This document shows positions 1 to 24,966 of a stretch of DNA of 24,999 nt, piece by piece (position 1 is the first letter of the stretch; each line of letters starts with the position of its first letter). The stretch comes from Longimicrobiales bacterium. Lineage in GTDB: Bacteria > Gemmatimonadota > Gemmatimonadetes > Longimicrobiales > RSA9. The notes below the pieces were generated by a model. The model was not told the DNA's origin. It ran no database searches and saw only the letters and a list, made by a program, of their open reading frames with translations. The DNA lies in the NCBI GenBank assembly GCA_033722595.1, contig JAWVYT010000001.1:1-24999 (forward strand), given 5' to 3'. The position numbers and the translations under genes are program-made.

Positions 1-452
1 CCGAAGCAGTAGTCGGCCCCGCCGAACGACTCGATCAGCGATGTGGCGGCGCCGGGTTCGTTTGGGTCGGGGAACCGGACGTTGGCCGGGTCGGGCCGAA
101 GCTCCGGGTCCATGGGGTCCACCAGCGACGAGCGGACGAAACGGCGGAAGCTCAGCGGATGGTCCTCCGCGATGTACTCGTCGTTCTCGTCCAGGTACTC
201 ATCCATGCTGATGGTGACCAGCGGCGCGCACGAGACCCGCTCCTCGTTGCACAGGCGAGCCCAGTACCGGTAGTCCAGCGGGCCCACGGGGACGATCATC
301 AGGACCTGTCGGCCGGCTTCGCCGGCGGCCCGGATGGCGTCCACGGCCTCCCGGGCGACCCGGCGGTTCAGGGCGTCCAGATCATTGACCCGGTTGAACC
401 GGAAGGGCCGGAGCCGGCTGAAGTCTTCGAACTCGGTCTCGTAGATATCCAT
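1..452 (-). CDS. Glucosamine-6-phosphate deaminase/isomerase (NagB)-like protein, C-terminus truncated by window edge
   Basis: Not in the ORF track; translated manually from ATG at 452: MDIYETEFEDFSRLRPFRFNRVNDLDALNRRVAREAVDAIRAAGEAGRQVLMIVPVGPLDYRYWARLCNEERVSCAPLVTISMDEYLDENDEYIAEDHPLSFRRFVRSSLVDPMDPELRPDPANVRFPDPNEPGAATSLIESFGGADYCFG. MDEY, HPLSF and IESFGGAD match NagB-family MDEY, HPxSY and IxxxGGID segments. Open to position 1. Confidence 0.75.
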   Translation of the reverse strand, partial: MDIYETEFEDFSRLRPFRFNRVNDLDALNRRVAREAVDAIRAAGEAGRQVLMIVPVGPLDYRYWARLCNEERVSCAPLVTISMDEYLDENDEYIAEDHPLSFRRFVRSSLVDPMDPELRPDPANVRFPDPNEPGAATSLIESFGGADYCF

Positions 453-1289: not shown

Positions 1290-3116
1290 CTACTCCGCAT
1301 CCACCGGTGGCCGCCGAAGCTCTTCGAGCGCCGTCGGCGGGGCGAACTCCAGTCGCGGCCACAGCCGGGCCAGGACCAGGGCGGCGACGACGGCCAGCGT
1401 GGTCAGCGCCAGTGCCGGCCCCATACGGCCGTACAGCCAGTAGCCCACGGAGAACAGCGTGGAGTATACGGCGATGGCCCCGAGGCCGGCACACACCAGG
1501 CCTATGGGGACGTCCCAGCCGCCGCCCTCCGGCAGGGCGTCTCCCGCTTCCACGGCCCGGGCCCGGACCACGGTCCAGCCCGGTCCGCCCGGCCGGACCT
1601 TCTGGTAGAAGCGTCGGAGCACCCGGTCATCGGAGGGCCGCGTCAGCAGGGTCACCACGAGCCAGGTGGTGGTGGTGAGCACCACCGTGGTCAGCAGGAT
1701 CTGCCAGCTCCGGAGCGGGGCGAACCCCAGCGGCTCGTGGACGAAGTTGAAGTAGACCGCCGTGGTGAGGGCCGTGGCCATGGCAGCGATCTCGCTGAAA
1801 GCGTTGACCCGCCACCAGAACCAGCGAAGCAGGAAGACGAGCCCCGTCCCCGCCCCGATCTGCAGCAGGAGCCGGAAGACCTGGAGCGCGCTCTGCAGCT
1901 GGAGCGCAACGAACCCGGCGAGGAGGACGAAGAGCACCGTCGCGATCCGCCCCACCAGGACCCGCTCCCTTTCATCGGCCTCGGGCCGGTAGAAGCGTCC
2001 GTAGAGGTCGTTGACCACGTACGACGACATGAGGTTGAGCTGCGTGGAGATGGTCGACATGTACGCCGCTGCCAGCGAGGCCACGACGATGCCGAGTAGG
2101 CCCGGCGGCATGAACGTCAGCATGGCAGGGTAGCCGAGGTCGTGACCCGGCGGGGCGGTGGGGAACGCCGCCGCCAGCGACTCGAGGTCCGGGAAGACGA
2201 TGAGCGACGCGAGGGCCACGATGATCCACGGCCAGGGCCGGACGGCGTAATGGACCACCTGGAAGAACAGCGTGGCGCCCATGGCGTGCCGCTCGTCCTT
2301 CGCCGACAGGATCCGCTGGACGATGTAGGCGGCGCCGCCGGGTTCCGACCCGCCGTACCACATGCTCCACCAGAACACGGTGAGGGGGAGCACGAAGATG
2401 GACATGGCCAGGTCCATGTCGTCGAACGAGGGGACCAGGGCCGTCTTGGCCACGACGTTGGCGTGCCCGAGCAGCCCGTCGAGACCACCCACCTGGGGAT
2501 GAGTGAGGGCGACGTACGCCGCGGCCACCGACCCGAAGATGGCGATGCCGAACTGGAACAGGTCGGCCCAGACCACGCCCCGGAGCCCGCCGGACATGCT
2601 GTACAGGGCCGTAATGCCGCCGCCCACCAGGACCACCGTCAACGGCTGCACCCCGATCATGATCCCGGCGATCTTGATGGCCGCCAACGTGATGGCCGCC
2701 TGCGCCAGGATCCCGAACACCAGGACCATGTAGCCCGCTCGGAACGCCCGGAGGAAGGCCGCGGGCTTCCCGCTGTAGCGGAGCTCGTAGAAGGAAATGT
2801 CGGTGAGGAGCCCGCTCCGGCGCCACAGCTTGGCGTACACGAACACCGTCAGCATCCCCGTAAGGAGGAGGGCCCACCACTCCCAGTTCCCGGCCACGCC
2901 GTGCCGCCGAACGATGTCCGTGACCAGATTGGGCGTGTCCGTGGAGAAGGTGGTCGCCACCATGGACGTGCCCAGCAGCCACCACGGCATGTTGCGGCCC
3001 GAGAGGAAAAACTGGGCCGAGTCCTTCCCGGCCTTCCGGCTCGCCAGGATCCCGATGACCAGCGAAAGGGCCATCACGCTCAGGATGATGGCCAGGTCCA
3101 GCGTGGACAGGATCAT
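1290..3116 (-). CDS. Na+:solute symporter (SSS family)
   Basis: 608 aa with many hydrophobic helices; FFLSGRNMPWWLLGTSMVATTFS, GGLRGVVWADLFQF, IVQRILSAKDE and AAYMSTISTQLN are SSS-type segments. Confidence 0.92.
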   Translation of the reverse strand: MILSTLDLAIILSVMALSLVIGILASRKAGKDSAQFFLSGRNMPWWLLGTSMVATTFSTDTPNLVTDIVRRHGVAGNWEWWALLLTGMLTVFVYAKLWRRSGLLTDISFYELRYSGKPAAFLRAFRAGYMVLVFGILAQAAITLAAIKIAGIMIGVQPLTVVLVGGGITALYSMSGGLRGVVWADLFQFGIAIFGSVAAAYVALTHPQVGGLDGLLGHANVVAKTALVPSFDDMDLAMSIFVLPLTVFWWSMWYGGSEPGGAAYIVQRILSAKDERHAMGATLFFQVVHYAVRPWPWIIVALASLIVFPDLESLAAAFPTAPPGHDLGYPAMLTFMPPGLLGIVVASLAAAYMSTISTQLNLMSSYVVNDLYGRFYRPEADERERVLVGRIATVLFVLLAGFVALQLQSALQVFRLLLQIGAGTGLVFLLRWFWWRVNAFSEIAAMATALTTAVYFNFVHEPLGFAPLRSWQILLTTVVLTTTTWLVVTLLTRPSDDRVLRRFYQKVRPGGPGWTVVRARAVEAGDALPEGGGWDVPIGLVCAGLGAIAVYSTLFSVGYWLYGRMGPALALTTLAVVAALVLARLWPRLEFAPPTALEELRRPPVDAE

Positions 3117-3124
3117 CTATGCGG

Positions 3125-3790
3125 CTACGCGCCGGCGTGCGTCTTGTCCCACGCCTCCTGGAAGATCCGTTCTCCCATCGTGGAGTACGGGCTCCTGAAG
3201 CTGTCCTGGTAGACGGCGAAGCCGGCGGTGACGCAATCGGCGCCCGCCCGGGCGGCCTCCCCGATCTGCCATCCGTTCCGGATCGCCGACGCGATGATCT
3301 CGGCGTCGTAGCCGCCGGCGTCGAGCATCTCCCGGACGCCCCGAATCAGCGAGATGCCGGGGTCGCCGTGGGCCTCTCGCCAGCCCAGGAAGGGGCTGAC
3401 GTAGGCGGCGCCCGCCCGAGCAGCGTGCCACGCCTGGGCCACCGAGAAGATGAGCGTGGCGTTGACCCGGATGCCGTCGCCGCTCAGCGTCCGGATGGCC
3501 GCGCACCCGGGCTCGCTCATCCCGATCTTGATAACGAACTGCGGGGAGATGGCCGCCAGCTCCCGGGCCTGCTCCACGATCTGGTCGTGGTCGGTCAGGT
3601 GGGGATTCACCTCCACGCTGATCGGCTTGTCCGTATCCGACAGGATGTCGGCGATCTCACGGATCACCCCCTTGAAACTCTTGCCCGAAGTGAAGACGTG
3701 CTTGGGGTTCGTCGTGATCCCGTTGAGGTCCCACACCTTCAGGGCGTGCCGGATCTCTTCCGTGTTCGCGCTGTCCAGAAACAGTTTCAT
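3125..3790 (-). CDS. sqvA: Small transaldolase (TalC/FSA family), closest in motif pattern to 6-deoxy-6-sulfofructose transaldolase
   Basis: Start ATG 3790 (MKLFLDSA), 221 aa. Catalytic D6, E60 and Schiff-base K88. TTNPKH, ISVEVNPHL, SPFLGW, IRNGWQI and GFAVYQDSF match the SqvA/SftT pattern as recalled, not ordinary TalC (TTNPSL, SPFVGR). Symbol assigned by similarity only. Confidence 0.8.
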   Translation of the reverse strand: MKLFLDSANTEEIRHALKVWDLNGITTNPKHVFTSGKSFKGVIREIADILSDTDKPISVEVNPHLTDHDQIVEQARELAAISPQFVIKIGMSEPGCAAIRTLSGDGIRVNATLIFSVAQAWHAARAGAAYVSPFLGWREAHGDPGISLIRGVREMLDAGGYDAEIIASAIRNGWQIGEAARAGADCVTAGFAVYQDSFRSPYSTMGERIFQEAWDKTHAGA

Positions 3791-3803: not shown

Positions 3804-5255
3804 CTAGTCGATTCCGCCGAAGGACAGGTGCTTGGTCTCCAGGAAGGCGTCCAGCCCCTCGGCTCCCAGCTCCCGACCCATTCCACTCTGCTTCATCCCG
3901 CCGAACGGGCTCTGGCTCGTCGACGGGACCGCGTCGTTGATCCCCACGGTCCCCGCCTCGAGCGCCTCCCCGACCCGCCATGCCCGGGCCAGGTCCGTGG
4001 TGAAGACGTACGCGGCCAGGCCATACTCCGTGGCGTTGGCCCGCGCCACTACCTCGTCTTCGTCGTCGAAGACCAGGAGGGGCGCGATGGGGGCGAACGT
4101 CTCTTCCACCGTGCACGCATGATCATCGGCCACGCCCTCGAGGACGGTCGGCTCCAGGAAGTAGCCGTCCAGCTCGGCCCGCCCGCCACCGGTGAGGACC
4201 GTGGCGCCCGCAGACACGGCGGCCTCGATGCTGGCCTCAGCGGCCTCCAACGCCCTCTCGTCCACCATGGGTCCGATATCGACCCCCTCGGTGAGCCCGT
4301 TCCCGACCTCGAGGTCCCGGACGCCGGCAACGAAGGCCTCCCGGAACGCGTCGTAGATGCCGCGCTGCACATAGATCCGGTTCGCGGCGATGCACGACTG
4401 ACCCGTGTTCCGGAACTTCGTGATCAGCGTTCCCTCGACGGCCATCTCGAGATCCGCGTCATCGAACACCACGACGGGGGCGTTGCCGCCCAGCTCGAGG
4501 GACAGCTTTGTGATGTCGTCCGCGGCCAGTCGCATGAGCTGGCGACCCACGGATGTGGAGCCCGTGAAGCTCACCTTGCGGCACTCCCGGTGCCCGAACA
4601 TGGCCTCGGCCACCGCCCGTGCGTTCCCCAGGACCAGCTGGAAGACGCCGCGCGGCAGCCCGGCCTCGTGGATGGCTTCGGCCAGGAGTACGGACGACAG
4701 AGGCGTCGCGCTGGCCGGCTTCAGCACCACCGGACACCCGGCGGCCAGGGCGGGGGCCACCTTCCGGACGGCGAGCACCAGCGGGAAGTTCCAAGGCGCG
4801 ATCGCGCCCACCACGCCGACCGGCTGACGGATGATCACGTGCCGCTTCCCGTCGACCTGGTGGGGGATGACCCGGCCGTAGCCCCGTCGGGCCTCCTCGG
4901 CGAACCACTCCAGGTGATCCACCGTCATGCCCACCTCGCCCCGGCTCTGCGCCAGCGGCTTGCCGTTCTCCCGCGTCAGCGTTCGGGCGATCTCGTCGGT
5001 ACGGTCCTCGATCCCCCGGGCGATCCGCCGGAGGTAGCCGCCCCTCTCCTTGCCCGTGAGGCGCCGCCAGCCGGGCCACGCGGCCGCCGCATCATCCAGG
5101 GCGGCGCGCACGCCGCCGGCGTCCACGGTCGCCACCCGACCGATGGTCTCGCCGGTGGCCGGGTCCTGGACGGCCAGGGGGTCGCCGCCCCGGTACCACT
5201 CGCCGTTCAGGTACAGGGGACGGACGCTCTGCGTGGGTGCTGATGTAGCTGACAT
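3804..5255 (-). CDS. NAD-dependent aldehyde dehydrogenase, GabD/succinate-semialdehyde dehydrogenase-like; candidate sulfolactaldehyde dehydrogenase
   Basis: IAPWNFP, VVLKPAS, SFTGSTSVG, LELGGNAP (catalytic Glu), RNTGQSCIA (catalytic Cys), EETFAP, PFGGMKQSG. Family is certain; substrate is inferred from context. Confidence 0.9.
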   Translation of the reverse strand: MSATSAPTQSVRPLYLNGEWYRGGDPLAVQDPATGETIGRVATVDAGGVRAALDDAAAAWPGWRRLTGKERGGYLRRIARGIEDRTDEIARTLTRENGKPLAQSRGEVGMTVDHLEWFAEEARRGYGRVIPHQVDGKRHVIIRQPVGVVGAIAPWNFPLVLAVRKVAPALAAGCPVVLKPASATPLSSVLLAEAIHEAGLPRGVFQLVLGNARAVAEAMFGHRECRKVSFTGSTSVGRQLMRLAADDITKLSLELGGNAPVVVFDDADLEMAVEGTLITKFRNTGQSCIAANRIYVQRGIYDAFREAFVAGVRDLEVGNGLTEGVDIGPMVDERALEAAEASIEAAVSAGATVLTGGGRAELDGYFLEPTVLEGVADDHACTVEETFAPIAPLLVFDDEDEVVARANATEYGLAAYVFTTDLARAWRVGEALEAGTVGINDAVPSTSQSPFGGMKQSGMGRELGAEGLDAFLETKHLSFGGID

Positions 5256-5306: not shown

Positions 5307-6575
5307 TCAGGGGGCCCGGGCCGGGACGTCCAGGTCCTCGGCATGGGTGCCCGCCGAGCCGGAGCGGACCTGCGCCAGGATCGTCTCCTCGTCCTCCGGG
5401 AAGCTCCACGAGAACCCCATCCAGGCTGCCCCGAGCGCGCCCGCGATGCCGCCCAAGCGCCCGTCCTCGAGGTAGGTGGTCTTCAGGATCTGGGGCAGCA
5501 CGTGCTCCCGGAACGTCTCCTCCAGCGCCTGCCGGACCGTGGAGCAGCAGTTCGGGACCTCGCCGGATAGCACGATCTTCTCCGGGGCGAAGAGGTTGGC
5601 GAGGTTCGCCAGGATGGTGCCCAGACGCTCACCCAGCTCCTCGAGGCAGGCATCCAGAAGGTCGTCACCGGCCTGGGCCTCCTCCACCAGGTCGGAGAGC
5701 CGCAGATCTTCACCCTTGTCCAGCAGCCGCTGTCGACTGTCCGTCTTCTGCCACGAACGCAACATGGCCCGGGTCGACTCCACGAACCCCGTCGCCGATA
5801 CCAGGTCGGTGACCAGCTTGGGCCCCCCATCGGTCGGCAGCACCGTGTAGCCCACCTCGCCCGCCAGCGCGTTCGCGCCCCGGTAGACCCTGCCATCGAT
5901 GACGATCCCGAGACCCACGCCCGACCGGACCGCCAGACACAGGAAGTCGCTGTTGCCACGCCCCGCGCCCCGCAGCAGCTCCGCGTAGGCCACCGCACGG
6001 ATGTTGTCCTCCACGAAGACGGGGACGTCCGGACCGAGGGCGGCCTCCATACGCTCCCGGACCGGGACCTGGTCGAAGTCCGGCAGGAGCCGGTAGTGGA
6101 GGATGCGGCCGGAACGCACGTCCACCTGGCCCGGCGCCGCGACACCCACGGCAAAGACTGGCCCATCCGCTTGTTCGACCATTCTCCGGGCCAGCTCCGT
6201 TATCGTCTCGAGCGCTTCCTCCCGGGAAGGGGAGGCCGGCAGCGAGACCTCCTCCTCCTTCAACACACCCCCGCCGAAATCACACAGCACCGCACGGGCC
6301 CGGAGCGCCTCGAAGTCGAGACCCACGAACGTGCCGTAGTCCGGGTTGAGTTGCAGCGGCACCGGCGCACGACCGGGGCGCGACTGCACCGGCTCGCCCT
6401 CCAACAGTATCCCGACGTCGAGGAACTCGTTGACGTATCGGCCGACCATCGTCGCGTTGATGTTCAGGCGCTGCGCAAGCTCGAAGCGGGAGCAGCGCTC
6501 ACTCCTGAACACCTGGTTCAGGATGCCGCGCTTCTTGGCCACCAGCTTCGTTTCTCGAGGTCGAGGATACGCCAT
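5307..6575 (-). CDS. ROK family transcriptional regulator
   Basis: N-terminal HTH (SRFELAQRLNINATMVGRYVNEF), then ROK segments VGLDF, VGVAAPGQVD, GVGLGIVIDGRVYRG and AGEVG. Confidence 0.9.
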   Translation of the reverse strand: MAYPRPRETKLVAKKRGILNQVFRSERCSRFELAQRLNINATMVGRYVNEFLDVGILLEGEPVQSRPGRAPVPLQLNPDYGTFVGLDFEALRARAVLCDFGGGVLKEEEVSLPASPSREEALETITELARRMVEQADGPVFAVGVAAPGQVDVRSGRILHYRLLPDFDQVPVRERMEAALGPDVPVFVEDNIRAVAYAELLRGAGRGNSDFLCLAVRSGVGLGIVIDGRVYRGANALAGEVGYTVLPTDGGPKLVTDLVSATGFVESTRAMLRSWQKTDSRQRLLDKGEDLRLSDLVEEAQAGDDLLDACLEELGERLGTILANLANLFAPEKIVLSGEVPNCCSTVRQALEETFREHVLPQILKTTYLEDGRLGGIAGALGAAWMGFSWSFPEDEETILAQVRSGSAGTHAEDLDVPARAP

Positions 6576-6702: not shown

Positions 6703-7326
6703 TCACTGCCCCCGGTTCCGCCATTCGACCTGGAGCTGTTTCACCTCGGCGACGCCGGGCAGCTCGTGCTTCATCGGAGCCCGGACGTGCTCCACGACCT
6801 CTGCGCCGGGGCGGAGGGTGGCCGGGGCGGGCTGGACGTGGCTGGCGATGCTGGCGGCCTCGACCGTGCCCGGGTCGTTCTCGATAAGGCGGTTGATGCG
6901 GTCGAGGTGCCGGTCGATGCCGGGCACGTGGGGCACCGCGTAGATGGCTGCGATGCGTGCGCCGTCGGCGTTCTCCGAGGTCGCGATCTTGAGGTCGAGG
7001 TACATCTCCCGGAAGTCCTGGCCGAAATAGCGATGGGCGCTGAGGTTGGCCACCACGGCGGTGCCCCAGCCGGTGCCGTGGGTGCTGATGGAGCCGAGTG
7101 ACTCCCATTCGCCGCCGAAATCGAGGTTGGTCCGGAGGAAGACCTCGTGCTCGCCGGCGTCGAGATCGGCTCCATAAATGAAGAGGTCGAATCTGAGGTC
7201 CTCGGGCGCGAAGGTCGGTTCGGGACGGGTGTCCTGGGCGGTGCCCGGGGTCCCGCAGCCGAGGGCCGTTGCGGTGACCAGCAGGAGCGTTGCGAACGTC
7301 CGTGCGAGAGGTTCCGGCGGATGCAT
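6703..7326 (-). CDS. Hypothetical lipoprotein; stand-alone copy of the C-terminal domain of the 10929-12581 protein
   Basis: ATG 7326 preceded by GAGGAAATC; hydrophobic stretch plus lipobox ALGC; 207 aa; visible similarity to the neighbouring protein (RFDLFIYG vs RFDLWIYG). Confidence 0.75.
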   Translation of the reverse strand: MHPPEPLARTFATLLLVTATALGCGTPGTAQDTRPEPTFAPEDLRFDLFIYGADLDAGEHEVFLRTNLDFGGEWESLGSISTHGTGWGTAVVANLSAHRYFGQDFREMYLDLKIATSENADGARIAAIYAVPHVPGIDRHLDRINRLIENDPGTVEAASIASHVQPAPATLRPGAEVVEHVRAPMKHELPGVAEVKQLQVEWRNRGQ

Positions 7327-7366: not shown

Positions 7367-8890
7367 TCACGAGGCTTCCAGCACGACGGTGACGGTGGCG
7401 ACGGCCACGTCGGCGGGCAGAGTGATGGAGCCCTCCTCGGGGTCGTAATCGGACCACGGGCGTCCGTCGATCTCCACCGCCGTGATCCGGATCTCCGGGT
7501 CCTCCAGCAGGGAGGGGTGGAGCGTCGCTCCATTCGGCTCCACGATGCGGTAGTGGAGCGTCGCGGGCTCCTCCTCGACCCAGAGAGTGAGGTAGAGATA
7601 GTTGAGGAGCGCGTACTCCATGGAGTGATACGACGTCTTCGTGCGGACGGCTTTATCACCCCTGTGGAGGGACCCATCGAGGTATACGCTGAGATACACG
7701 GCGCCGTGCTCGGGGTCCATGAAGGCCCGGTTCCAGAACTCTGCGCCCGAGCGGAACACCTCGAGGTGCCGACGGTCCCCGGTCAGCCGATACTGGTACA
7801 GCTGCACCATGTTCCCGTACGCCTGGACCCACCAGGGCGTGGTGTTCCTGTGCACCTCGCCGGTAGCCAGCCGCAGCTGATGGGCCCACGCGCCGGTCTC
7901 CGGCTGGTACGCGTGCTCCAGCATGGAGGTCGCGAGCCGAAGGCCCTGGTCGCGGTAGGCGTCGTCACCGGTGAGGAGGTGGAGCCGCATGAGCAGCCAC
8001 CCGGTCTCCAGGTCGTGGCCGACGTTCGTCCGACGATCCTCGGGGCCATCGTACCGCCAGCTCCGATCGAACCGGCCCAGGACCCAGCCGGTCTCCGGGT
8101 CCCGTGTGCGCTCCATCACCACGCCCAGGATCCGCTCCATCCGCTGGAGGAGCACGGGGTCCCGCAGGGCGGGGTAGAGGTACGCCAGGTAGCCGGAGAC
8201 GTGGGCGATCTGGGGAGAGAAGTCCTTTCGCCATTCCCGGACCGACAGGTCCCGGTTCAGGCTGCGCACGTAGCCGCCGAGCTCCTCGTCCCAGGCGTGC
8301 CGCTCGAGGATCTCCATGGACCGATCGAGGTACCGGCGCACCACCGGATCCCGCGTCACGACCCAGTACATGGCCAGTCCGGTCACGGCGTACGCCTGGT
8401 TGAACAGGTCCTTGGTGTCGGCGACGATGCTCCCGTCCCGGTCCAGTTCGTCGTACCAGCCCCCGTACGCCTCGTCCCACCCGTGGTCCACCAGGAAGCC
8501 GAAGACGTCACCGGCGACATCCAGATGAGCGGCATCGCCGGTCAGGAGGTAGGCCGCGGAATAGCTGAAGAGGTGACGGGCCACCATGCCGGGGTACTTG
8601 TGGAGGTCGCGACTCGGCCGCCACTCCCGGTCCATCTCGGCGAAGAACGCGCCCGCCTCGGTGTCCTGGCCGTTGCGGGTCCAGGCGGGGAGCACGTCCT
8701 CGAGCCCCTGTGCCCGCCAGTAGTCGCCGTCCAGGAGGGCATCGGCCGTGACACCCGCGGTCGGCTCGTCGGTCACGGACTCGGCCGACGCCGAAGCGCC
8801 TGCGCCGGTCGGGCCACAGGCCGCGCAGGAGAATGCGAGGGCGGGGAGCAGCAGCCGGGCCCCCGATCGGACCGTGTTCGGGGCCCTCAT
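7367..8890 (-). CDS. AGE-family (N-acylglucosamine/cellobiose 2-epimerase, YihS-like fold) epimerase/isomerase with probable lipoprotein signal
   Basis: ARHLFSYS, GWDEAYGGWY, KDLFNQAY, VGHDLETGWLL, WWVQA, SYH. ATG 8890 overlaps the upstream stop (ATGA). Signal LLLPALAFSCAAC; 507 aa. Confidence 0.85.
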   Translation of the reverse strand: MRAPNTVRSGARLLLPALAFSCAACGPTGAGASASAESVTDEPTAGVTADALLDGDYWRAQGLEDVLPAWTRNGQDTEAGAFFAEMDREWRPSRDLHKYPGMVARHLFSYSAAYLLTGDAAHLDVAGDVFGFLVDHGWDEAYGGWYDELDRDGSIVADTKDLFNQAYAVTGLAMYWVVTRDPVVRRYLDRSMEILERHAWDEELGGYVRSLNRDLSVREWRKDFSPQIAHVSGYLAYLYPALRDPVLLQRMERILGVVMERTRDPETGWVLGRFDRSWRYDGPEDRRTNVGHDLETGWLLMRLHLLTGDDAYRDQGLRLATSMLEHAYQPETGAWAHQLRLATGEVHRNTTPWWVQAYGNMVQLYQYRLTGDRRHLEVFRSGAEFWNRAFMDPEHGAVYLSVYLDGSLHRGDKAVRTKTSYHSMEYALLNYLYLTLWVEEEPATLHYRIVEPNGATLHPSLLEDPEIRITAVEIDGRPWSDYDPEEGSITLPADVAVATVTVVLEAS

Positions 8891-10932
8891 GGCCGCCTCG
8901 GCGGTGGCAGCACGCCGGGGACGGCGATGATCGGGCTGTCGGCCAGTCGGGACATGACATCGATCCGGCGCTCCACGAGGCCGTTCCGGTTCACGTCCAG
9001 GACCGCCGCGATCCGGTAGCGTCCCGGCGGGATGCTCTCGAAGCGGAAGGCGCCGTCGGGTCCCGCGGCGGTCTCGAGCACGGGCTGCGCCAGGTACGGC
9101 TCGATCTTCCGATACGGCAGGTCGGCCATGTAGAGGCCGACCCGGATCGTGGCGTCGCCGGGCTCGCCCTCGATGTCCAGCGCTCCCCGGAGCGTGCGAC
9201 CCTCGAGGACCAGGCTGGCGGCGCGCAGGTCCACGGCGGTCACGTCGGTGTCCAGGAGGTCCGGCGGAAGATCGAAATGAATGGCCGCGGTCTCCTCGCG
9301 GGCCCGAACCGTCACCGGGTGGCCGTAGATCAGGGTCCGGAGGTCCTCGTAAGCGCTTTTGTCGCTCGTCGGGCCGGGGTTCCGAGGGTCGGCCTCCGCC
9401 ACGTAGATGTAGAACGTGCCCGGCGCCAGCCGGTCGATCCTCCAGCGGCCGTCCTCGTCGGCTACCGTCCGCTGTCCCCAGAATCCGCCGGTGTAGTTGG
9501 GCCACGCCGGGATGCGCCGCACACCCACGGCGACGACGTTCTCGCCGTGGTAGTCCACGGTGCCCGCGATGCTGCCGAGGAGGGTGTCGGGGTCGAGGGG
9601 TGGGGTGGCCGGGTGATCGGGGTCCACCAGCCGTAGCGCCTCATCGATGATCCGGACGCCGTAATGGGGCTGGAACCGGACGCCCTTGGCCTGGTAGGTG
9701 ACGGCCTCGAGGGCCAGGTGCTCGGGCACGATGTAGCCGATGTAGTCATCGGCGTTCGTGATGAGCATGTTCTTCTCGAGGGGCGAGCCGGCCTCGTAGC
9801 GGTACCCCAGGTCCACGCCCAGCTCGCCGGGGATGGTGGCGAGGACCGCGTCGTTCAGGACCAGGGCCTGGAGGAGGGTCTCGTGGCTGTCCCCGTCCCG
9901 GCGCGGGATCTCCGCCGTGGTGGAGCGGAACGCGAGGTCGACCTGCCGTCGTGTCTCCGTCCGGTCGAGGAGGGCCACGACCTCTTCGCCCAGCTTCTCC
10001 ATGAAGACGAGCTTCGGCGGGGCCTCCTCACCCCGGATCCGGGTGTCGGCTCGCCGGGGCTGCTGGTCACCCGCCGCGCCGCCCGAAAACATGATGAACG
10101 GGTCGGTGGCGATGTCGTTCTTCCGCTGGTAGCGCTCGTACAGCAGGTCCAGCCGCTTCCTGGCCTCCACGTACTCCCGGACGAACCCGGGCCAGTCCGG
10201 CCCCGTCTGCCCGACATCGCTCCACTCGGTGAAGATGGTGGGATGGGACCCGTAGTTGAACATGGCGCCACGGAAGTTGCCGTCGGCGTCGTCGACGCGC
10301 AGTACGTAGAGGAGCGGGTTGGCCAGGCCCGACAGCTCGGCTCGGTTCAGGTTCAGATCCTCCTGCGCCCGGGTCTTCCCGACACCGATCCGGGCGTCGA
10401 ACCGGGTCGCCATGGCCTCCTCGGCGGCCCGGGTCGCCCGGTCCGCCAGGAAGCTCCGGACCTCCTGGCCGTGCGTCCGGGGGTACGAGTGGTTGTGGGT
10501 TGCTGCCACGATCATGTGACGGACGTCGAGCCCCGTGGCTTCGGCTACCCGGCGCTTGATCCACTCCCCGTCGCCCCGACGGATCCCGATGACGTCGAAC
10601 TCCAGGAGCAGGGTTTCGACACCGTCGACCTCGATGAGGAGAGCATGGACCAGCGCACTGTCGTAGTACCCCGTCGTCGGCTCCGGACGCCCGTACGAGA
10701 GGCGGACCGGGAACTCCGGCGTGATATCCGCCTCGCCGAACCCCACGCGGACGGCGCCCGACGCCCGGACCTCGTACACGGGCGCGGCGGTCCGGGCGTC
10801 CCGGCCAAGCGGAGGGATTCCGGGACCCGGCTCCGCCCCGGAGGCTCCCGGCAGCGCCAGGAACGCGGTCAGGCACACCACGACGGACGACCGGCACTCC
10901 CCGGCGCCGGCGAGCCCTCGCCTCCGGGTCAC
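8887..10932 (-). CDS. Exported neutral/alkaline ceramidase-like amidase domain plus C-terminal beta-sandwich (carboxypeptidase-regulatory-like) domains
   Basis: GFGEADITP, AATHNHSYP, NYGSHPT, GAAGDQQP, NADDYIGYIVP; C-terminal WRIDRLAPGTFYIYV and FRFESIPPGRYRIAAVLDVNRNG. GTG 10932 overlaps the upstream TGA; signal peptide-like N-terminus; 681 aa. Confidence 0.78.
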   Translation of the reverse strand: MTRRRGLAGAGECRSSVVVCLTAFLALPGASGAEPGPGIPPLGRDARTAAPVYEVRASGAVRVGFGEADITPEFPVRLSYGRPEPTTGYYDSALVHALLIEVDGVETLLLEFDVIGIRRGDGEWIKRRVAEATGLDVRHMIVAATHNHSYPRTHGQEVRSFLADRATRAAEEAMATRFDARIGVGKTRAQEDLNLNRAELSGLANPLLYVLRVDDADGNFRGAMFNYGSHPTIFTEWSDVGQTGPDWPGFVREYVEARKRLDLLYERYQRKNDIATDPFIMFSGGAAGDQQPRRADTRIRGEEAPPKLVFMEKLGEEVVALLDRTETRRQVDLAFRSTTAEIPRRDGDSHETLLQALVLNDAVLATIPGELGVDLGYRYEAGSPLEKNMLITNADDYIGYIVPEHLALEAVTYQAKGVRFQPHYGVRIIDEALRLVDPDHPATPPLDPDTLLGSIAGTVDYHGENVVAVGVRRIPAWPNYTGGFWGQRTVADEDGRWRIDRLAPGTFYIYVAEADPRNPGPTSDKSAYEDLRTLIYGHPVTVRAREETAAIHFDLPPDLLDTDVTAVDLRAASLVLEGRTLRGALDIEGEPGDATIRVGLYMADLPYRKIEPYLAQPVLETAAGPDGAFRFESIPPGRYRIAAVLDVNRNGLVERRIDVMSRLADSPIIAVPGVLPPPRRP

Positions 10933-19463: not shown

Positions 19464-19530
19464 GGGATCGCTGTGGCAGGTTCGTGGAGCCCCGTCCCCG
19501 GCGAAAGCCGGCGTCGCGGCCGTTGACCCC

Positions 19531-19559
19531 AGGGTAGAGGTCCGGGAGGGCCCCGTCAA
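19531..19559 (-). promoter_or_regulatory. Candidate sigma70 promoter for the sulfatase
   Basis: Minus strand TTGACG (19559-19554), 17 nt, TACCCT (19536-19531; TAnnnT). Confidence 0.5.
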
Positions 19560-19729: not shown

Positions 19730-20047
19730 ATGACACAGGAAACGCAGGCGCAGCTCCGGGGGCTGGTGGTGCACCCGGAGGACAACGTGGTGAACCTGGT
19801 GGGTCCGGGCGAGGCGGGCCGGACGGTCCACTGTGTGGTGGAGGGACGGGACGAGGCGGAGCAGATCGAGCTGCGGGATGACATTCCGTCGAACCACAAG
19901 CTGGCCCGCCGGGACATCGCGGTGGGGGAGGCGATCGTGAAGTACGGGCTGAGCATCGGGAAGGCGAGCGCGGCCATCGATCGCGGGGAGCATGTACACG
20001 TTCACAACATCGAGTCCAACCGGGGTCGGGGCGATCTCCAGGGCTAG
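19730..20047 (+). CDS. suyA: UxaA-family dehydratase/lyase small subunit (SAF domain), SuyA-like
   Basis: VHPEDNVVNL, DDIPSNHKLARRDIAVGEAIVKYGLSIG, GEHVHVHNIES; 105-aa stand-alone SAF domain. Symbol from architecture and context. Confidence 0.75.
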   Translation: MTQETQAQLRGLVVHPEDNVVNLVGPGEAGRTVHCVVEGRDEAEQIELRDDIPSNHKLARRDIAVGEAIVKYGLSIGKASAAIDRGEHVHVHNIESNRGRGDLQG

Positions 20048-20063
20048 GAAGGGCGAACCAGAT

Positions 20064-21233: not shown

Positions 21234-21838
21234 GCGCCGTCGCCACGCCCTCGCTCCCGGTGTTCCGGGACGTGTTGGCGGAGGTCGTCATCGCCGAGCG
21301 GGCGGAGGGATGGCTGGCTCGCTGTGCCGCGACCGGTACGTACCTGGTGGTGACACGGGAGCTGGTCCACGCGCTGGTGGGGGTCATCGAACGGCTCGGG
21401 GCCCCTCCGGTCCTGGAGGTCTGCGCGGGCGACGGCACGCTGGCGCGGGCCCTCGCCGAGCTCGGGGTGTCCGTCACGGCCACGGATGCCCATCCAGCCC
21501 GCGGGAGCCGCGTGACAGCGTGCCCCGCCGCCGCGTCGCTGCGACGGTATCCCCATCCGATGGTTCTCGGGAGCTTCGTCCCCTTCGATGCCGGGATCGA
21601 GGAGCGTATCCTGGCCGCCGGTCATGTCCGGCACTACCTGGCGCTGGGCGCTCGGATTGGCGTCCACGGCGGCGTCACGAACCGCTTGGGGGCCGTGCCG
21701 GGCTGGGATGCCGTTCCGCTGCCCGGCGTGGCCCGGTGGATGGTCACGCGCCACGACGCGTGGCTCGGCGACGGGTCGTCGATCCGCTGTCGCGGCGAAG
21801 CCTGGCTCCTGAGCCGCACGCAGGAGGTCGGACCGTGA
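21230..21838 (+). CDS. Hypothetical protein with class I SAM-dependent methyltransferase-like motif
   Basis: VLEVCAGDGTLARAL followed by VSVTATD (motif I and the beta2 Asp). TTG 21230 overlaps the suyB stop and its own stop overlaps the next start. Confidence 0.65.
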   Translation: MSAVATPSLPVFRDVLAEVVIAERAEGWLARCAATGTYLVVTRELVHALVGVIERLGAPPVLEVCAGDGTLARALAELGVSVTATDAHPARGSRVTACPAAASLRRYPHPMVLGSFVPFDAGIEERILAAGHVRHYLALGARIGVHGGVTNRLGAVPGWDAVPLPGVARWMVTRHDAWLGDGSSIRCRGEAWLLSRTQEVGP

Positions 21839-22923
21839 CGCGCTACGACCCCGTCGCGGTGCGGGCACTGGTCGGGGAGATCGGCGTGTCAGCGGGTCTC
21901 CCCGCCGGCGACGCCGCGCTCTTCGCCGACGCCCTGATAGACGCCGATCTCCATGGGCGGTCTACACATGGGCTCTCGCGTCTCGCAATCTACATGAAGC
22001 GCATGGATCACGGACTCATCGATCCCCGGGCGGAGCTCCGGGTCGAGCGGCATGCCCCGGGCGTCCTGTCGGTGGACGCCCGGAACGGGGTGGGCCAGGT
22101 CCAGGCGATCCGGACGCTGGAACGGCTGCGGCCGCTGGCCGTGGACCTGGGAGTGGCCGCGGCCACGATCCGGGGGTCCCAGCACTTCGGCGCCCTCGGC
22201 TACTACTGCGACTGGGCGGCCGAGCGGGACATGATCCTCCTGGCTACCACGGCGGCCGAGCCGGCGATGAGTCCGACCGGGGGATACGAGCCCTTCTTCG
22301 GCACGAACCCCATCGGCGCCGGCTTTCCTACGGGGAAGGGGTGGCCGGTGACCATCGACCTGGCCACGTCCATAGTGGCGCGGGGCAACATCATCGCGGC
22401 CGAGAAGGAAGGCCGGCCGATCCCGGAGGGGTGGGCGCTGGATGCGGACGGCCATCCCACCACCGACGCTGCGGCGGCCCTGGCCGGCACCGTTCTCACT
22501 ATGGCCGGCCACAAGGGGTACGCCCTGGCGCTGCTGGTCGAGCTGCTGTCGAGCGTGCTGAGCGGCGCGGCCGTCGGGCCGTCGATCGGCTCCATGTACA
22601 AGGATCTGGATCGGCCCCAGGACGTGGGCCATTTCTTCTGCCTGCTCCGGATCTCGGCGTTCATGGACCCCGAGGCCTTCCGGAGCCGGGTGGATGCCAC
22701 CATCGACCGGATCACCTCGCTGCAACCGCGGCCCGGCAGCGACGGGATCCGCGTTCCCGGTGAACATTCAGCCAGGAAGGCCCGGGAGAATCGCCGGTTG
22801 GGGATCGCGCTGGGAGCCGCGACCGTCCGCGAGGTCGACGCGCTGGCCGACCGGTACGGGATCTCGACGCGGCTGGAGCAGCTCCGGGTGCCGGCCGCTT
22901 CCTCGGGCGGGCCGAATGCCTGA
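21835..22923 (+). CDS. comC: Ldh_2-family (type 2 malate/L-lactate) dehydrogenase, ComC (R)-sulfolactate dehydrogenase-like
   Basis: DADLHGRSTHGLSRL, HFGALGYY, FGTNPI, IDLATS, GHKGYALALLVELL; GTG 21835 with AGGAGG RBS. Family is certain; substrate from context. Confidence 0.75.
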   Translation: MTRYDPVAVRALVGEIGVSAGLPAGDAALFADALIDADLHGRSTHGLSRLAIYMKRMDHGLIDPRAELRVERHAPGVLSVDARNGVGQVQAIRTLERLRPLAVDLGVAAATIRGSQHFGALGYYCDWAAERDMILLATTAAEPAMSPTGGYEPFFGTNPIGAGFPTGKGWPVTIDLATSIVARGNIIAAEKEGRPIPEGWALDADGHPTTDAAAALAGTVLTMAGHKGYALALLVELLSSVLSGAAVGPSIGSMYKDLDRPQDVGHFFCLLRISAFMDPEAFRSRVDATIDRITSLQPRPGSDGIRVPGEHSARKARENRRLGIALGAATVREVDALADRYGISTRLEQLRVPAASSGGPNA

Positions 22924-23884
22924 CATCCTGGTCAGTGAGGACGTGGGTGGCCCGGCCCTGTCGGCGCTCGGAGGCCGGTATGAAGTGGTCGTGGAACCGG
23001 AGCTCTGGCGTCGCCCCGACGCACTGGCCCGGCGGATCCGGGGCTGTCGGGCCCTCATCGTTCGGAACCAGACCCAGGTCACGAGTGGGCTCCTGGCCGC
23101 CGCGGAGGACCTCGAGGTCGTGGGACGAGCGGGCGCGGGGCTGGACAACGTCGACGTGGAGGCGGCGACCGCGGTGGACGTCCGCGTCTGCTACGCGCCG
23201 GAGCAGAACGCCCTCTCCGTAGCGGAGCTCGGGATGGGGATGCTGCTGGCGCTGGCCCGCAGGCTGGTACCGGCCGACCGCTCGACCCGGGCCGGGTACT
23301 GGGATCGGCAGGAACACACGGGGATCGAGCTGCACGGGCGGACGCTGGGCGTCATCGGGTTCGGCCGGATCGGGTTCCTGATGGCGATGCGCGCCCGTGC
23401 CTTCGGGATGACCGTGCTCGCCCACGACCCCTTCCTCGGGCCGGACCACGTCACCCTCGTGGCGGCCGGCGCCGAGCTGGTGGGTCTCGAGGAGCTGCTG
23501 GGCCGGGCGGACGCGGTGACCTGTCACCTGCCGAGCACCCCCGGGACCCGCGGCCTGCTGAACGCGGAGCGTTTCGGGCGGATGAAGTCCGGGGCCCTCT
23601 TCCTGAATCTGTCGCGCGGCGACGTGGTGGAGGAGGCCGCCCTGATCGAGGCGCTGGAGGCGGGCCAGATCGGCGGCGCAGGACTCGATGTCCGGGCCGC
23701 CGAGCCACCGGCAGCCTCGCCGCTGGACCGGCTTGACAACGTGATCCTGACCCCGCACATCGGCGCCTTCACCGAGGAGGCGCAGCACCGGGTCGTGGCG
23801 GCCGTGTGCCGCGACATCCGGCGGGTGCTCGAAGGCGAGCAGCCCATGTACGCGGCGAACCGCCCCCGCGGGAGCGCACGTTGA
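22916..23884 (+). CDS. slcC: D-isomer-specific 2-hydroxyacid dehydrogenase, SlcC (S)-sulfolactate dehydrogenase-like
   Basis: MPDILVSE, ALIVRNQTQV, GRAGAGLDNVD, GVIGFGRIG, AHDPF (NAD-type Asp), NLSRG, LDVRAAEP, TPHIG; no ACT domain; ATG 22916; 322 aa. Substrate from context. Confidence 0.72.
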   Translation: MPDILVSEDVGGPALSALGGRYEVVVEPELWRRPDALARRIRGCRALIVRNQTQVTSGLLAAAEDLEVVGRAGAGLDNVDVEAATAVDVRVCYAPEQNALSVAELGMGMLLALARRLVPADRSTRAGYWDRQEHTGIELHGRTLGVIGFGRIGFLMAMRARAFGMTVLAHDPFLGPDHVTLVAAGAELVGLEELLGRADAVTCHLPSTPGTRGLLNAERFGRMKSGALFLNLSRGDVVEEAALIEALEAGQIGGAGLDVRAAEPPAASPLDRLDNVILTPHIGAFTEEAQHRVVAAVCRDIRRVLEGEQPMYAANRPRGSAR

Positions 23885-24966
23885 CCCGGTCCGATCCCGG
23901 CCGGAGCCTGGCGGCTGCGCTGCCCGGGTTGGCGCTGGTGGCGGCCCTCGCGGTCGGCGCGACAGCGATGAGCGGGTGGGTCGGCGAGGGGCTCCTGGGG
24001 TACACCACGAGCCCGCTGAGCCCGATCCTGCTGGCGGTCTTGTCGGGCCTGCTGATCCGGAACACGGTAGGCCTCGACGGCGCGTTCGCACCGGGCATCG
24101 CGTGGACCGCCGGCCCGCTCCTCCGCGTCAGCATCGCGCTGCTCGGGATCCGGCTGAGTGTGGGCGCCCTGGCAACCCTGGGGGTGATCGCGCTGCCGAT
24201 CGTCGTCGGGTGCATCGTCGCCGCCCTGGGGGCCATCGGGGCCATTACGCGGCTCGTGAACGTACCGCCCCGGCTCGGGTCGCTGATCGCCGCCGGGACC
24301 AGCATCTGCGGGATCACGGCGGTGGTGGCGCTGGCCCCGGTCATCGAGGCCCGGGACGACGAGACCAGCTATGCGGTGGCCACCGTCGCCCTGTTCGGGA
24401 TGATCGCCCTGTTCTCCTACCCGTTCCTGGCACACGTCCTGTTCGACGACGCGACCCGGGCCGGCCTGTTCCTGGGCACCTCCATCCACGACACCTCCCA
24501 GGTGGTCGGGGCGGCCCTGGCGTACAGCCAGCAGTTCGGGGCCCCCGAGGCGGTGGAGACGGCCGTGGTGACCAAGCTCGTCCGAAACGTCGGCATCATC
24601 GCCGTGATCCCGCTGATCAGCTACCTGCACGCGTCCCGGTCCGATGACAGCTCTCGGCCCGCGCCCGCCGTGCCAGGCTTCATCCTCGCCTTCGTCGCCA
24701 TGGCGCTCCTCCGGACGGCGGGTGACCTGGCTGCGGCCGCCGGGCTCCTCCCGGTCGCGGGCTGGGACCGTGCCGTGGCGTGGACGCAGTGGGCGGCCGC
24801 CGGTGGGCTGCTCGTGGCCATGGCCGCCGTCGGGCTCGGCACCCGGGTCGATGGTCTGCTCGGCCTGGGCGCGCGCCCCCTGGCCGTCGGCCTCACCGCG
24901 GCTCTGACCGTGGGCGGCGTGAGCATCGTCCTCATCGAGCTCCTCGGTATCGTGCATGTACTCTGA
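23881..24966 (+). CDS. YeiH/UPF0324 family putative sulfate/sulfite exporter (SuyZ/TauZ-like)
   Basis: GLLIRN, IALLGIRLS, LIAAGTSICGITAVVALAPVIEA, GTSIHDTSQVVGA, VVTKLVRN; about 10 hydrophobic helices; TTG 23881 overlaps the upstream stop. Confidence 0.88.
   Translation: MTRSDPGRSLAAALPGLALVAALAVGATAMSGWVGEGLLGYTTSPLSPILLAVLSGLLIRNTVGLDGAFAPGIAWTAGPLLRVSIALLGIRLSVGALATLGVIALPIVVGCIVAALGAIGAITRLVNVPPRLGSLIAAGTSICGITAVVALAPVIEARDDETSYAVATVALFGMIALFSYPFLAHVLFDDATRAGLFLGTSIHDTSQVVGAALAYSQQFGAPEAVETAVVTKLVRNVGIIAVIPLISYLHASRSDDSSRPAPAVPGFILAFVAMALLRTAGDLAAAAGLLPVAGWDRAVAWTQWAAAGGLLVAMAAVGLGTRVDGLLGLGARPLAVGLTAALTVGGVSIVLIELLGIVHVL

Follow-up and report, generated by a model that had tools for sequence, protein, structure and literature searches.

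A Trp-type transaldolase with Lys30 in the predicted sulfonate pocket, putatively acting on 6-deoxy-6-sulfofructose, in a Longimicrobiales genome

Introduction

The locus studied here raises the question of whether its TalC/FSA-class transaldolase acts on phosphorylated sugars, as the canonical members of the family do, or on 6-deoxy-6-sulfofructose (SF), and whether the Lys at position 30 sets it apart as a new type of enzyme. An earlier note, made from the letters of the DNA, had claimed a variant sulfonate-recognition triad, Lys30-Trp137-Arg171. The window, i.e., the whole stretch of DNA that was analyzed (24,999 bp, contig JAWVYT010000001.1, assembly GCA_033722595.1), belongs to a 74%-complete MAG of Gemmatimonadota (Longimicrobiales). 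To our knowledge, the sulfo-transaldolase route has been characterized only in Firmicutes. According to the analysis presented below, the gene probably encodes a class-5 TalC/FSA-type Schiff-base transaldolase specialized for SF, and its Lys30 is most likely a common natural variant present in hundreds of environmental bacteria rather than a new enzyme type.

Identification of the transaldolase gene and its neighbors

The transaldolase gene was located on the minus strand (3790..3125) and encoded a product of 221 aa (Table 1). Its ATG at 3790 was found 13 nt beyond the TAG stop of the upstream aldehyde dehydrogenase (ALDH) gene, with AAGGA 8 nt upstream of the ATG, and the enzyme of Bacillus megaterium and the homologues aligned with the product from residue 1 (phmmer). 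A longer variant of 253 aa beginning with the GTG at 3886 was discarded, since it overlapped the ALDH gene and the homologues begin at the ATG; the plus-strand reading of 3125-3790 gave a low-complexity Arg/Pro/Gly-rich product and was considered an artifact. The product matched Pfam TAL_FSA (1.9e-39), and its best NCBIfam model was fsa_talC_mipB (TIGR00875), with 181 bits, which is below the equivalog cut-off of 246 bits. The AlphaFold model had a pLDDT of 96.7. The residues counted in the translation were D6, N28, K30-H31, E60-V-N-P-H64, K88-I89-G90, N110, S132, W137, A169-I-R171, and A213, including all six (D6, K30, E60, K88, W137, and R171) that the earlier note had listed.

Table 1. Features of the transaldolase locus and of the candidate sulfolactate operon in the window.
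Feature	Position	Strand	Evidence
NagB-like (glucosamine-6-phosphate deaminase-like) gene, 286 aa, 5' part, runs off the window	1..452	-	PDB NagB, E 2e-10; NCBIfam NagB-like, 1e-18
Amidohydro_2 protein, 264 aa	490..1284	-	Pfam PF04909, 8.5e-30; homologue in the Luteitalea locus
Sodium:solute symporter, 608 aa, directly downstream of the transaldolase	1290..3116	-	Pfam SSF, 1.3e-33; contig gene call
TalC/FSA-class sulfonate-type transaldolase, putative SftT/SqvA	3125..3790	-	Translation, Pfam, best PDB match, signature conservation
GabD/SSADH-like aldehyde dehydrogenase, 483 aa, candidate sulfolactaldehyde dehydrogenase	3804..5255	-	Pfam Aldedh, 1.6e-166
ROK-family regulator, 422 aa, winged helix at the N terminus; located upstream of the ALDH and transaldolase genes	5307..6575	-	Pfam ROK, 2.6e-37; HTH_24
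SuyA-like SAF-domain small subunit	19730-20047	+	Pfam SAF, 5e-5
SuyB-like UxaA/GD_AH large subunit	19992-21233	+	Pfam GD_AH_C, 5.5e-68; GD_AH_second
Ldh_2-family, ComC-like, candidate sulfolactate dehydrogenase; start approximate	21859..22923	+	Pfam Ldh_2, 1.2e-109
D-isomer-specific 2-hydroxyacid dehydrogenase; true start probably ~22920	22694..23884	+	Pfam 2-Hacid_dh_C, 3.1e-58
YeiH/PF03601 membrane protein, "putative sulfate exporter", SuyZ-like	23806..24966	+	Pfam Cons_hypoth698, 1.2e-56; NCBIfam TIGR00698

The PDB matches of the ALDH included 8c54, the sulfolactaldehyde (SLA) dehydrogenase GabD of R. leguminosarum (468 bits). An ALDH gene was found within 10 kb of the clade transaldolase in 19 of the 51 long loci and directly upstream of it in three of the loci (L001, L003, and L005). 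The ALDH fold alone does not separate SLADH from SSADH, and the "sulfonate" Arg pair of SLADH was discarded as evidence because the two enzymes are not separable by it. The symporter is a candidate sulfosugar importer or product exporter, and the NagB-like protein is a candidate supplier of the ketose substrate; homologues of the latter, 33-34% identical, adjoin the transaldolase in loci L003 and L004. A ROK gene was present nearby in 22 of the 51 long loci. The SuyA/SuyB-like pair is, from established family knowledge, presumably a candidate (R)-sulfolactate sulfo-lyase. The best NCBIfam model of the ComC-like protein was L-sulfolactate dehydrogenase (243 bits, below the 500-bit cut-off), and the 2-hydroxyacid dehydrogenase, which follows it in the same order in Luteitalea, is a candidate for the second enzyme of a sulfolactate-racemizing pair. 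The window also encodes a sulfatase of the formylglycine type and a system for TonB-dependent uptake.

Residues of the active site and anion pocket

The closest solved protein by sequence was the SF transaldolase of B. megaterium, BmSF-TAL (PDB 8bc3/8bc4/8bc2; E 1.5e-57, 198 bits, phmmer), whereas the best-scoring TalC, that of Thermotoga, reached 159 bits. The same protein was the closest by fold when the AlphaFold model was compared (TM 0.94-0.96, rmsd 1.1-1.5 Å, identity 46%), with 8c4i/8bc3/8bc2 occupying the top Foldseek ranks. In the full-length phmmer alignment, K30 was aligned to R30 of BmSF-TAL, and a one-residue insertion in the latter after residue 54 shifted the subsequent numbering by one, with E60, K88, W137, A169, and R171 corresponding to E61, K89, W138, A170, and R172, respectively. 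This insertion accounts for the offset of one proposed in the earlier note, all three residues of whose triad fall on R30, W138, and R172 of the solved enzyme. As the alignment covers the full length of the protein (E 1e-57) and the model superposes on BmSF-TAL, the residue matches are not due to chance.

According to a published description of BmSF-TAL (PMC11659671), its catalytic residues are Asp6-Lys89-Glu61 and its sugar-orienting residues are Asn111/Ser133, while a sulfonate "WAR motif" is referred to, with W138 named. In the protein studied here, the catalytic D6/K88/E60 and sugar-orienting N110/S132 matched these positions, and W137/A169/R171 were the counterpart of the "WAR" motif in the alignment. 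An Arg-Trp-Arg sulfonate triad has reportedly been described in BmSF-TAL by Snow et al. 2023; by elimination and from covariation between sequences, we infer that its first Arg is R30.

The TalC proteins of Thermotoga and Thermoplasma had T30-L31, F-V-G-R at position 137, S-I-R at positions 169-171, and K-I-P in the same alignment, which bears out the claim that the phosphate-type enzyme carries Arg where Trp stands here. Two of the three phosphate ligands of TalC were replaced (Trp137 for Arg and Ala169 for Ser), while Arg171 was kept. In a set of 124 representatives (50% identity), the residues covaried along the same division: proteins with R137 carried S/T30, L31, S169, P90, and D213, whereas proteins with W137 and an intact active site carried R/K30, H31, A169, A213, and the E-x-N-P-H insert. 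W137, H31, and R171 were invariant, and A169 nearly so, in the nearest 120 homologues and in the 80 genome loci. The sulfonate chemistry suggested in the earlier note is in agreement with both the Trp-type enzyme, as opposed to the phosphate Arg type, and the sulfonate genes surrounding it.

Distribution of the clade and copies in related genomes

In species-representative genomes, 349 relatives were confirmed. The nearest homologue was 84% identical to the gene studied here, and identity across the 80 genome loci was 54-71%. Members of this environmental clade were found in Luteitalea sp., Vicinamibacteraceae, Pirellulaceae, Gimesia, Kolteria novifilia Pan216, and Opitutales, where they are annotated as "transaldolase" or, by JGI, as "6-deoxy-6-sulfo-D-fructose transaldolase"; the Luteitalea orthologue was 71% identical and also had K30. 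No assayed member of this clade was found in the literature search. Among the 41 genomes of the order Longimicrobiales that were searched, the copy in the window was the only one: the 40 related genomes yielded no orthologue, only canonical TalC with 34-40% identity, and the gene should therefore be regarded as accessory. A fragment of canonical TalC (F-I-G-R, A-S-I-R-H, K-C-P) was detected on another contig (C630) of the same MAG, and thus the gene in the window represents an extra, specialized copy.

Proposed reaction and origin of the substrate

The sequence, the fold, the mapped residues and their covariation, and the surrounding genes were observed directly; SF as the substrate, the products, and a part of residue 30 in binding the sulfonate are inferred from them. 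In the proposed mechanism, Lys88, aided by Asp6 and Glu60, would condense with the carbonyl group at C2 of SF to give an imine, SLA would be released upon cleavage between C3 and C4, and the bound dihydroxyacetone unit would be transferred to glyceraldehyde-3-phosphate or erythrose-4-phosphate, giving fructose-6-phosphate or sedoheptulose-7-phosphate, respectively. The anion pocket would be composed of Arg171, i.e., the retained second phosphate-binding Arg of TalC, Trp137 in place of the first phosphate-binding Arg, Ala169 in place of the phosphate-binding Ser, and a cationic residue 30 (Lys here, Arg in B. megaterium) with His31 in place of T/S30-L31 of TalC. The GabD-like dehydrogenase would then convert SLA to sulfolactate, and the operon encoding SuyAB, the ComC-like and 2-hydroxyacid dehydrogenases, and YeiH would convert sulfolactate to pyruvate and sulfite.

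For the supply of SF, the window and the 74%-complete MAG were searched for YihS orthologues, DUF4867 isomerases, and GH31 sulfoquinovosidases of the YihQ type, and none was found. KduI and DUF4867 were not found in the MAG, although the DUF4867 search gave no match in control genomes either. An AGE-family gene was rejected as a YihS orthologue: its product had a signal peptide and was nearer to cellobiose/GlcNAc 2-epimerases than to YihS (cellobiose 2-epimerase, E 1e-21, vs. YihS, E 2e-8). The sole GH31 of the MAG was YicI-like and was likewise rejected as a sulfoquinovosidase. Among the families searched, no canonical enzyme was thus identified that would supply SF, neither an isomerase nor a sulfoquinovosidase. 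The conserved NagB-like and PIG-L neighbors hint at an amino-sugar precursor: a NagB-like gene was present in 22 of the 51 long loci and a PIG-L deacetylase gene in 19 of the 51, the two usually together.

Such neighbors, including the NagB-like gene three genes downstream of the transaldolase, would also fit a transaldolase of unchanged mechanism whose substrate is a different anionic ketose without phosphate, such as fructose 6-O-sulfate derived from GlcNAc-6-sulfate via a deacetylase and the NagB-like deaminase; the locus would then serve a sulfated amino-sugar route and not a sulfoquinovose route. The sulfatase and TonB-dependent uptake genes of the window and the outcome of the isomerase and sulfoquinovosidase search favor this alternative as well. 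However, the full pocket signature (R/K30-H31, W137, A169, R171, and the N-P-H insert) is common to the proven SF enzyme and to homologues in canonical sft operons, SuyAB and the ComC-like dehydrogenase indicate sulfolactate, which is a C-S compound, and "sulfoquinovosamine" was not mentioned in the literature searched. We know of no sulfate-ester pathway of this kind, and we consider the alternative improbable. It is conceivable, if doubtful, that sulfosugar catabolism has a so far undescribed branch for amino sugars that ends with this clade and in which a deacetylase (PIG-L in Planctomycetota, perhaps Amidohydro_2 here) and a NagB-like deaminase/isomerase would turn an N-acetyl-6-sulfo-hexosamine or GlcNAc-6-sulfate into sulfofructose or fructose 6-sulfate, which would then be split by the Trp-type transaldolase. 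Such a branch, if it exists, would explain the half of the clade loci that have no known SQ isomerase or sulfoquinovosidase.

Lysine and arginine at position 30

Within the SF transaldolase assignment, the two replacements pointed out in the earlier note, Lys for Arg at position 30 and K-I-G for K-I-P, were evident from the alignment to BmSF-TAL and TalC, and they had been taken there as the possible mark of a new subclade. Lys was found at position 30 in 48 of the nearest 120 homologues (Arg in 72) and in 24 of the 80 genome loci (Arg in 56), whereas G90 (K-x-G) was present in 118 of the 120 homologues and 72 of the 80 loci, in both K30 and R30 forms. That the Lys30 forms make up a subclade of their own function, with a different specificity for the donor or the acceptor, might be expected from the local group of the tree around the studied transaldolase, where 27 of 28 sequences had K30, and from general chemistry, the bidentate contacts of Arg being impossible for Lys. 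Nevertheless, approximately 15 R/K switches were reconstructed by parsimony, at least three of which were forced by well-supported branches; K30 occurred in Planctomycetota, Acidobacteriota, and a Firmicutes-type sft operon; and the kinds and frequencies of neighboring genes were similar for both forms. In the sft operon, a K30 homologue (48% identical) was found within the canonical order GH31-TAL-SLA reductase-DUF4867-TauE. A separate specificity of the Lys30/K-I-G form is thus highly improbable, and K30 was dropped as a subclade marker on the grounds of the tree switches and the context table. As judged from the sequences, the replacement of Arg by Lys appears conservative and near-neutral, with the charge kept and the two residues interchangeable, while K-x-G is a marker of a very large clade that spans Planctomycetota, Verrucomicrobiota, Acidobacteriota, and Gemmatimonadota. 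Therefore, of the suggested novelty, the part that stands is that K-x-G marks a clade; this clade is huge and in part already labeled by JGI, and Lys30 switches repeatedly with Arg without any link to context.

An ordinary pentose-phosphate transaldolase or fructose-6-phosphate aldolase merely located beside sulfonate genes, as the TAL_FSA and fsa_talC_mipB matches and the 42% identity to Thermotoga TalC might suggest, is extremely improbable in view of the replacement of the phosphate-binding Arg and Ser by Trp and Ala, the score below the equivalog cut-off, the canonical TalC elsewhere in the genome, and the lack of an orthologue in the 40 related genomes.

The signature enzyme of the sulfo-transaldolase route is hereby placed in Gemmatimonadota, Acidobacteriota, Planctomycetota, and Verrucomicrobiota. 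Given the prominence of these phyla in soils and in the sea, the share of the global sulfoquinovose flux that passes through this route may be larger than has been assumed. The interchange of R and K at position 30 provides a broader and safer annotation signature (R/K30-H31, N-P-H insert, W137, A169-x-R171, and A213), and the Lys30 form is accessible to bench work in the cultured K. novifilia Pan216.

Comparison with known systems

BmSF-TAL (SftT/SqvA of Bacillus (Priestia) megaterium DSM 1804; PDB 8bc2, 8bc3, 8bc4, and 8c4i; EC 2.2.1.14) has the same fold and length as the protein studied here and shares with it the Asp-Lys-Glu catalytic set, the Asn/Ser sugar contacts, the Trp-Ala-Arg anion motif, His31, and the E-x-N-P-H insert; the next metabolic step is likewise assigned to an SLA dehydrogenase, as in aerobic Bacillus. 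The protein studied here departs from BmSF-TAL in having Lys for Arg at position 30, K-I-G for K-I-P following the Schiff-base Lys, a loop after residue 54 that is one residue shorter, and a Gemmatimonadota MAG as its host. Moreover, its gene has neither DUF4867/SqvD nor an isomerase of the YihS type nor a sulfoquinovosidase of the YihQ type nearby, and the cell probably desulfonates its sulfolactate itself instead of excreting it.

The TalC proteins of Thermotoga maritima (1vpx), Thermoplasma acidophilum (3s0c), and B. subtilis (3r8r) and the E. coli FSA (1l6w) belong to the same decamer-forming class-5 TIM-barrel family, with the same Schiff-base Lys, Asp, and Glu and an identity of 38-42%. 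These enzymes are characterized by T/S30-L31, Arg137, Ser169, Pro90, Asp213, and a sequence without the N-P-H insert, whereas the protein studied here differs at all of these positions. Within the environmental clade, the Luteitalea locus (L001) contains the same set of ROK, ALDH, transaldolase, transporter, Amidohydro_2, SuyAB, ComC, and 2-hydroxyacid dehydrogenase genes, while what distinguishes the window from the clade is that the NagB-like and ALDH/Suy modules occur together with a TonB-dependent uptake locus.

Gene Start, Family Placement and Fold

The transaldolase P0002 belongs to the Pfam family TAL_FSA and scored 181 bits against the NCBIfam TalC/FSA equivalog (cut-off 246). Its ATG at 3790 lies 13 nt past the TAG that ends the preceding aldehyde dehydrogenase gene, with AAGGA 8 nt upstream, and the alignment with its homologues and the solved Bacillus (Priestia) megaterium enzyme begins at residue 1; a longer GTG start at 3886 was therefore rejected. 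The open frame on the plus strand at 3125–3790 is an artefact, produced by a G+C content of 67%.

Among all PDB sequences, the top matches were those of the B. megaterium sulfofructose (SF) transaldolase, BmSF-TAL (8bc3, 8bc4 and 8bc2; E = 1.5e-57, 198 bits), with Thermotoga TalC (1vpx) well behind at 159 bits and the enzymes of Thermoplasma and B. subtilis at about 130 bits. AlphaFold2, given an alignment of 40 sequences, produced a very confident model (mean pLDDT 96.7), and in the Foldseek search the BmSF-TAL chains came first (TM 0.94–0.96, rmsd 1.1–1.5 Å, 45–46% identity) and TalC structures next (TM about 0.90).

Features of the P0002 locus and of the loci compared with it
Feature	Coordinates	Strand	Remarks
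TonB-dependent receptor		minus	order 1 from 17708
Protein without Pfam match		minus	order 2
Two exported proteins	10929-12530 (~533 aa); 8887-10839 (~650 aa)	minus	order 3; no Pfam or NCBIfam family
Exported AGE-superfamily protein	7367-8770	minus	order 4
Small lipoprotein	6703-7284	minus	order 5
ROK regulator, GabD-like ALDH		minus	order 6-7
Transaldolase P0002	3125-3790	minus (read 3790 -> 3125)	order 8; 221 residues by translation
SSS transporter, Amidohydro_2 protein		minus	order 9-10
NagB-like protein (glucosamine-6-P deaminase-like)	1-452, on into contig; L006 (source contig):13339-14199	minus	order 11; 286 aa; three genes downstream of P0002
Class II ketose-bisphosphate aldolase	L006:14196-14936, just past position 1		after NagB-like gene; cut by contig end
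Formylglycine-type sulfatase, SGSH_C domain	17988-19559	minus	
Suy operon	19730-24966	plus	gene order as in the next five rows
SuyA-like, SuyB-like pair	start of operon	plus	SAF-domain small subunit, UxaA-type large subunit
Conserved 215-aa protein	21191-21838	plus	between SuyB-like and ComC-like genes
ComC-like Ldh_2 dehydrogenase		plus	best NCBIfam model: L-sulfolactate dehydrogenase
D-2-hydroxyacid dehydrogenase		plus	
YeiH-family putative sulfate exporter (SuyZ-like)	end of operon	plus	
Luteitalea 210-aa gene	L001 (Luteitalea locus):17492-18124		
Textbook reductive operon with P0123	L098 (metagenomic contig):6060-12139		GH31 glycosidase, transaldolase, NAD_binding_2 (sulfolactaldehyde) reductase, 442aa, DUF4867, TauE
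Canonical TalC fragment, same MAG	C630:5-457		

Active-Site Residues and Position 30

By count on the translation, P0002 carries D6, N28, K30, H31, E60, K88-I-G90, N110, S132, W137, A169 and R171, and the positions given in the earlier note for D6, K30, E60, K88, K-I-G, W137 and R171 were right. In the phmmer alignment, K30 stands opposite R30 of BmSF-TAL, which has a one-residue insertion after residue 54; downstream of it the numbering is offset by one, so that E60, K88, N110, S132, W137, A169 and R171 correspond to E61, K89, N111, S133, W138, A170 and R172, respectively. The statements quoted from Snow et al. 2023 in Borusak et al. 2024 (PMC11659671) give D6/K89/E61 as the catalytic triad of BmSF-TAL, N111 and S133 as sugar-orienting residues and a 'WAR motif', including W138, as orienting the sulfonate; the Lys89 Schiff base is confirmed in a 2026 review. 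TalC differs at these columns, with T30-L31, F-V-G-R, S-I-R and K-I-P. Therefore, both the proposed mapping onto the SF transaldolase, with its offset of one, and the contrast between the Trp of the sulfonate site and the Arg of phosphate-specific TalC hold.

Covariation was assessed in a set of 124 full-length proteins, each representing one cluster at 50% identity. Proteins with Arg137 had S/T30, Leu31, Pro90, Ser169 and Asp213, whereas those with Trp137 and an intact active site had R/K30, His31, Ala169 and Ala213, as well as an E-(I/V)-N-P-H insert behind the catalytic Glu. This covariation with Trp137 suggests that position 30 is part of the sulfonate-type signature and that its conserved feature is a cationic side chain.

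The sulfonate site of BmSF-TAL was reportedly termed an 'Arg-Trp-Arg triad' by Snow et al. in 2023. An indirect case, combining the covariation with arginine elimination and PDB titles, points to R30 as the first Arg: the aligned chain contains only five arginines (14, 30, 126, 172 and 212), among which only R30 and R172 lie at barrel strand ends beside catalytic residues, and the titles of 6yrt and 6yre show that T30 of the Thermoplasma enzyme belongs to the active-site lid and has been studied as a pair with D211.

Distribution of Lys30 and K-x-G

Of the 1,692 proteins that the word-indexed search with P0002 yielded at E <= 1e-20, the 120 best, 64–84% identical to P0002, came from Luteitalea, Vicinamibacteraceae, Gemmatimonadaceae, Pirellulales, Planctomycetaceae and others, and two of them already bear the JGI name '6-deoxy-6-sulfo-D-fructose transaldolase'. 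In these 120 homologues, H31, W137 and R171 were invariant, A169 was invariant or nearly so and G90 occurred in 118, whereas position 30 was Arg in 72 and Lys in 48. The FastTree phylogeny required 15 R/K changes at this position by parsimony, at least three of them forced by well-supported branches; the group containing P0002 had K30 in 27 of its 28 members.

The scan of species-representative genomes confirmed 349 relatives, and the best 80 belonged to Planctomycetota (55), Verrucomicrobiota (19), Acidobacteriota (2), Chloroflexota (2) and Gemmatimonadota (1), with one unplaced. Trp137 was found in all 80, G90 in 72, Arg30 in 56 and Lys30 in 24, and the neighbour genes of the two forms were similar; the Lys form is present in the cultured planctomycete Kolteria novifilia Pan216. 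The Lys variant is also found in textbook sulfo-SFT clusters: the transaldolase P0123 (48% identical to P0002) combines K30-H31 with W, A, R and K-I-S, and an Arg30 relative occupies an operon of the same type. The idea that the variant triad marks a new subclade was thus not supported, since Arg and Lys are mixed among homologues, switch repeatedly on the tree and share a similar context. Lys30 is a recurrent conservative substitute for Arg30 rather than a special residue, and K-x-G marks a very large clade, not a new one.

Genomic Context and Source of the Ketose

The minus strand carries every gene from 17708 to the start of the window. The two exported proteins occupy the stretch from the TonB-dependent receptor to the catabolic genes, the expected site of hydrolases that release the substrate; in its C-terminal part, the 533-aa protein is similar to the small lipoprotein. 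The sulfatase gene has the TonB-dependent uptake locus on one side and the Suy operon on the other.

One feature does not fit the sulfonate reading: the usual entry enzymes of the route were not found among the genes and families searched. The AGE-superfamily protein is unlikely to be a cytoplasmic SQ isomerase: it carries an apparent signal or lipoprotein peptide, is extended by some 80 aa at its C-terminus and is much closer to GlcNAc/cellobiose 2-epimerases (E = 1e-21 to 1e-22 against PDB) than to the SQ isomerase YihS (E = 2e-8). The sulfoquinovosidase search covered GH31, and no YihQ-type member was found in the 74%-complete MAG, whose sole GH31 is YicI-like. Neither KduI nor DUF4867 was found there, which is weak evidence given the incomplete MAG and a DUF4867 search that matched nothing in any control genome. 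The NagB-like gene, 33–34% identical to those at two other loci of the clade (L003 and L004), flanks the transaldolase in 22 of the 51 long loci; its usual companion, a PIG-L deacetylase, occurs in 19. A KduI-like cupin is carried instead by other loci (13 of 51). The NagB-like protein, or the cupin elsewhere, could be the missing, non-orthologous sulfoquinovose isomerase. Alternatively, the NagB-like gene could be a sign of an amino-sugar precursor, the ketose being derived from an amino sugar in 6-sulfo or 6-sulfated form. Whichever the source, the step of P0002 would most simply be SF cleavage, because its pocket is shared with BmSF-TAL.

Origin of the Locus and Comparison with Known Systems

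The host genome is a 3.09-Mb MAG, placed in Longimicrobiales (Gemmatimonadota) by an RpoB match of 91%. It also contains a canonical TalC fragment with an Arg/Ser/Arg phosphate site (F-I-G-R, A-S-I-R-H and K-C-P), which argues for P0002 as an additional specialised paralogue. Among 40 genomes sharing its genus, family or order, none had a Trp-type orthologue and only TalC genes at 34–40% identity occurred; the nearest relatives belong to Acidobacteriota and Planctomycetota; this suggests horizontal acquisition of the locus in the Longimicrobiales lineage.

Known sulfolactate degradation involves SuyAB, ComC and SuyZ. By these roles, we take the plus-strand set to convert sulfolactate to pyruvate and sulfite; it is a probable sulfolactate desulfonation module, and the organism may thus fully mineralise the sulfosugar rather than excrete sulfolactate. 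The 215-aa protein, with only faint, methyltransferase-like Pfam matches, is a conserved member of this module, because a 46% identical counterpart holds the same position in Luteitalea. The Luteitalea MAG carries a P0002 orthologue (71% identical, K30) in the order ROK-KduI-ALDH-TAL-MFS-GFO-...-Amidohydro_2-GntR-SuyA-SuyB-210aa-Ldh_2-2HADH; thus, the transaldolase and Suy modules are conserved jointly across phyla.

The sulfonate-type interpretation advanced in the earlier note is well supported by sequence, predicted fold, covariation and context. P0002 belongs to an environmental clade that is large, uncharacterised and already partly auto-annotated, and is a new member, from a new phylum, of a known kind of enzyme.
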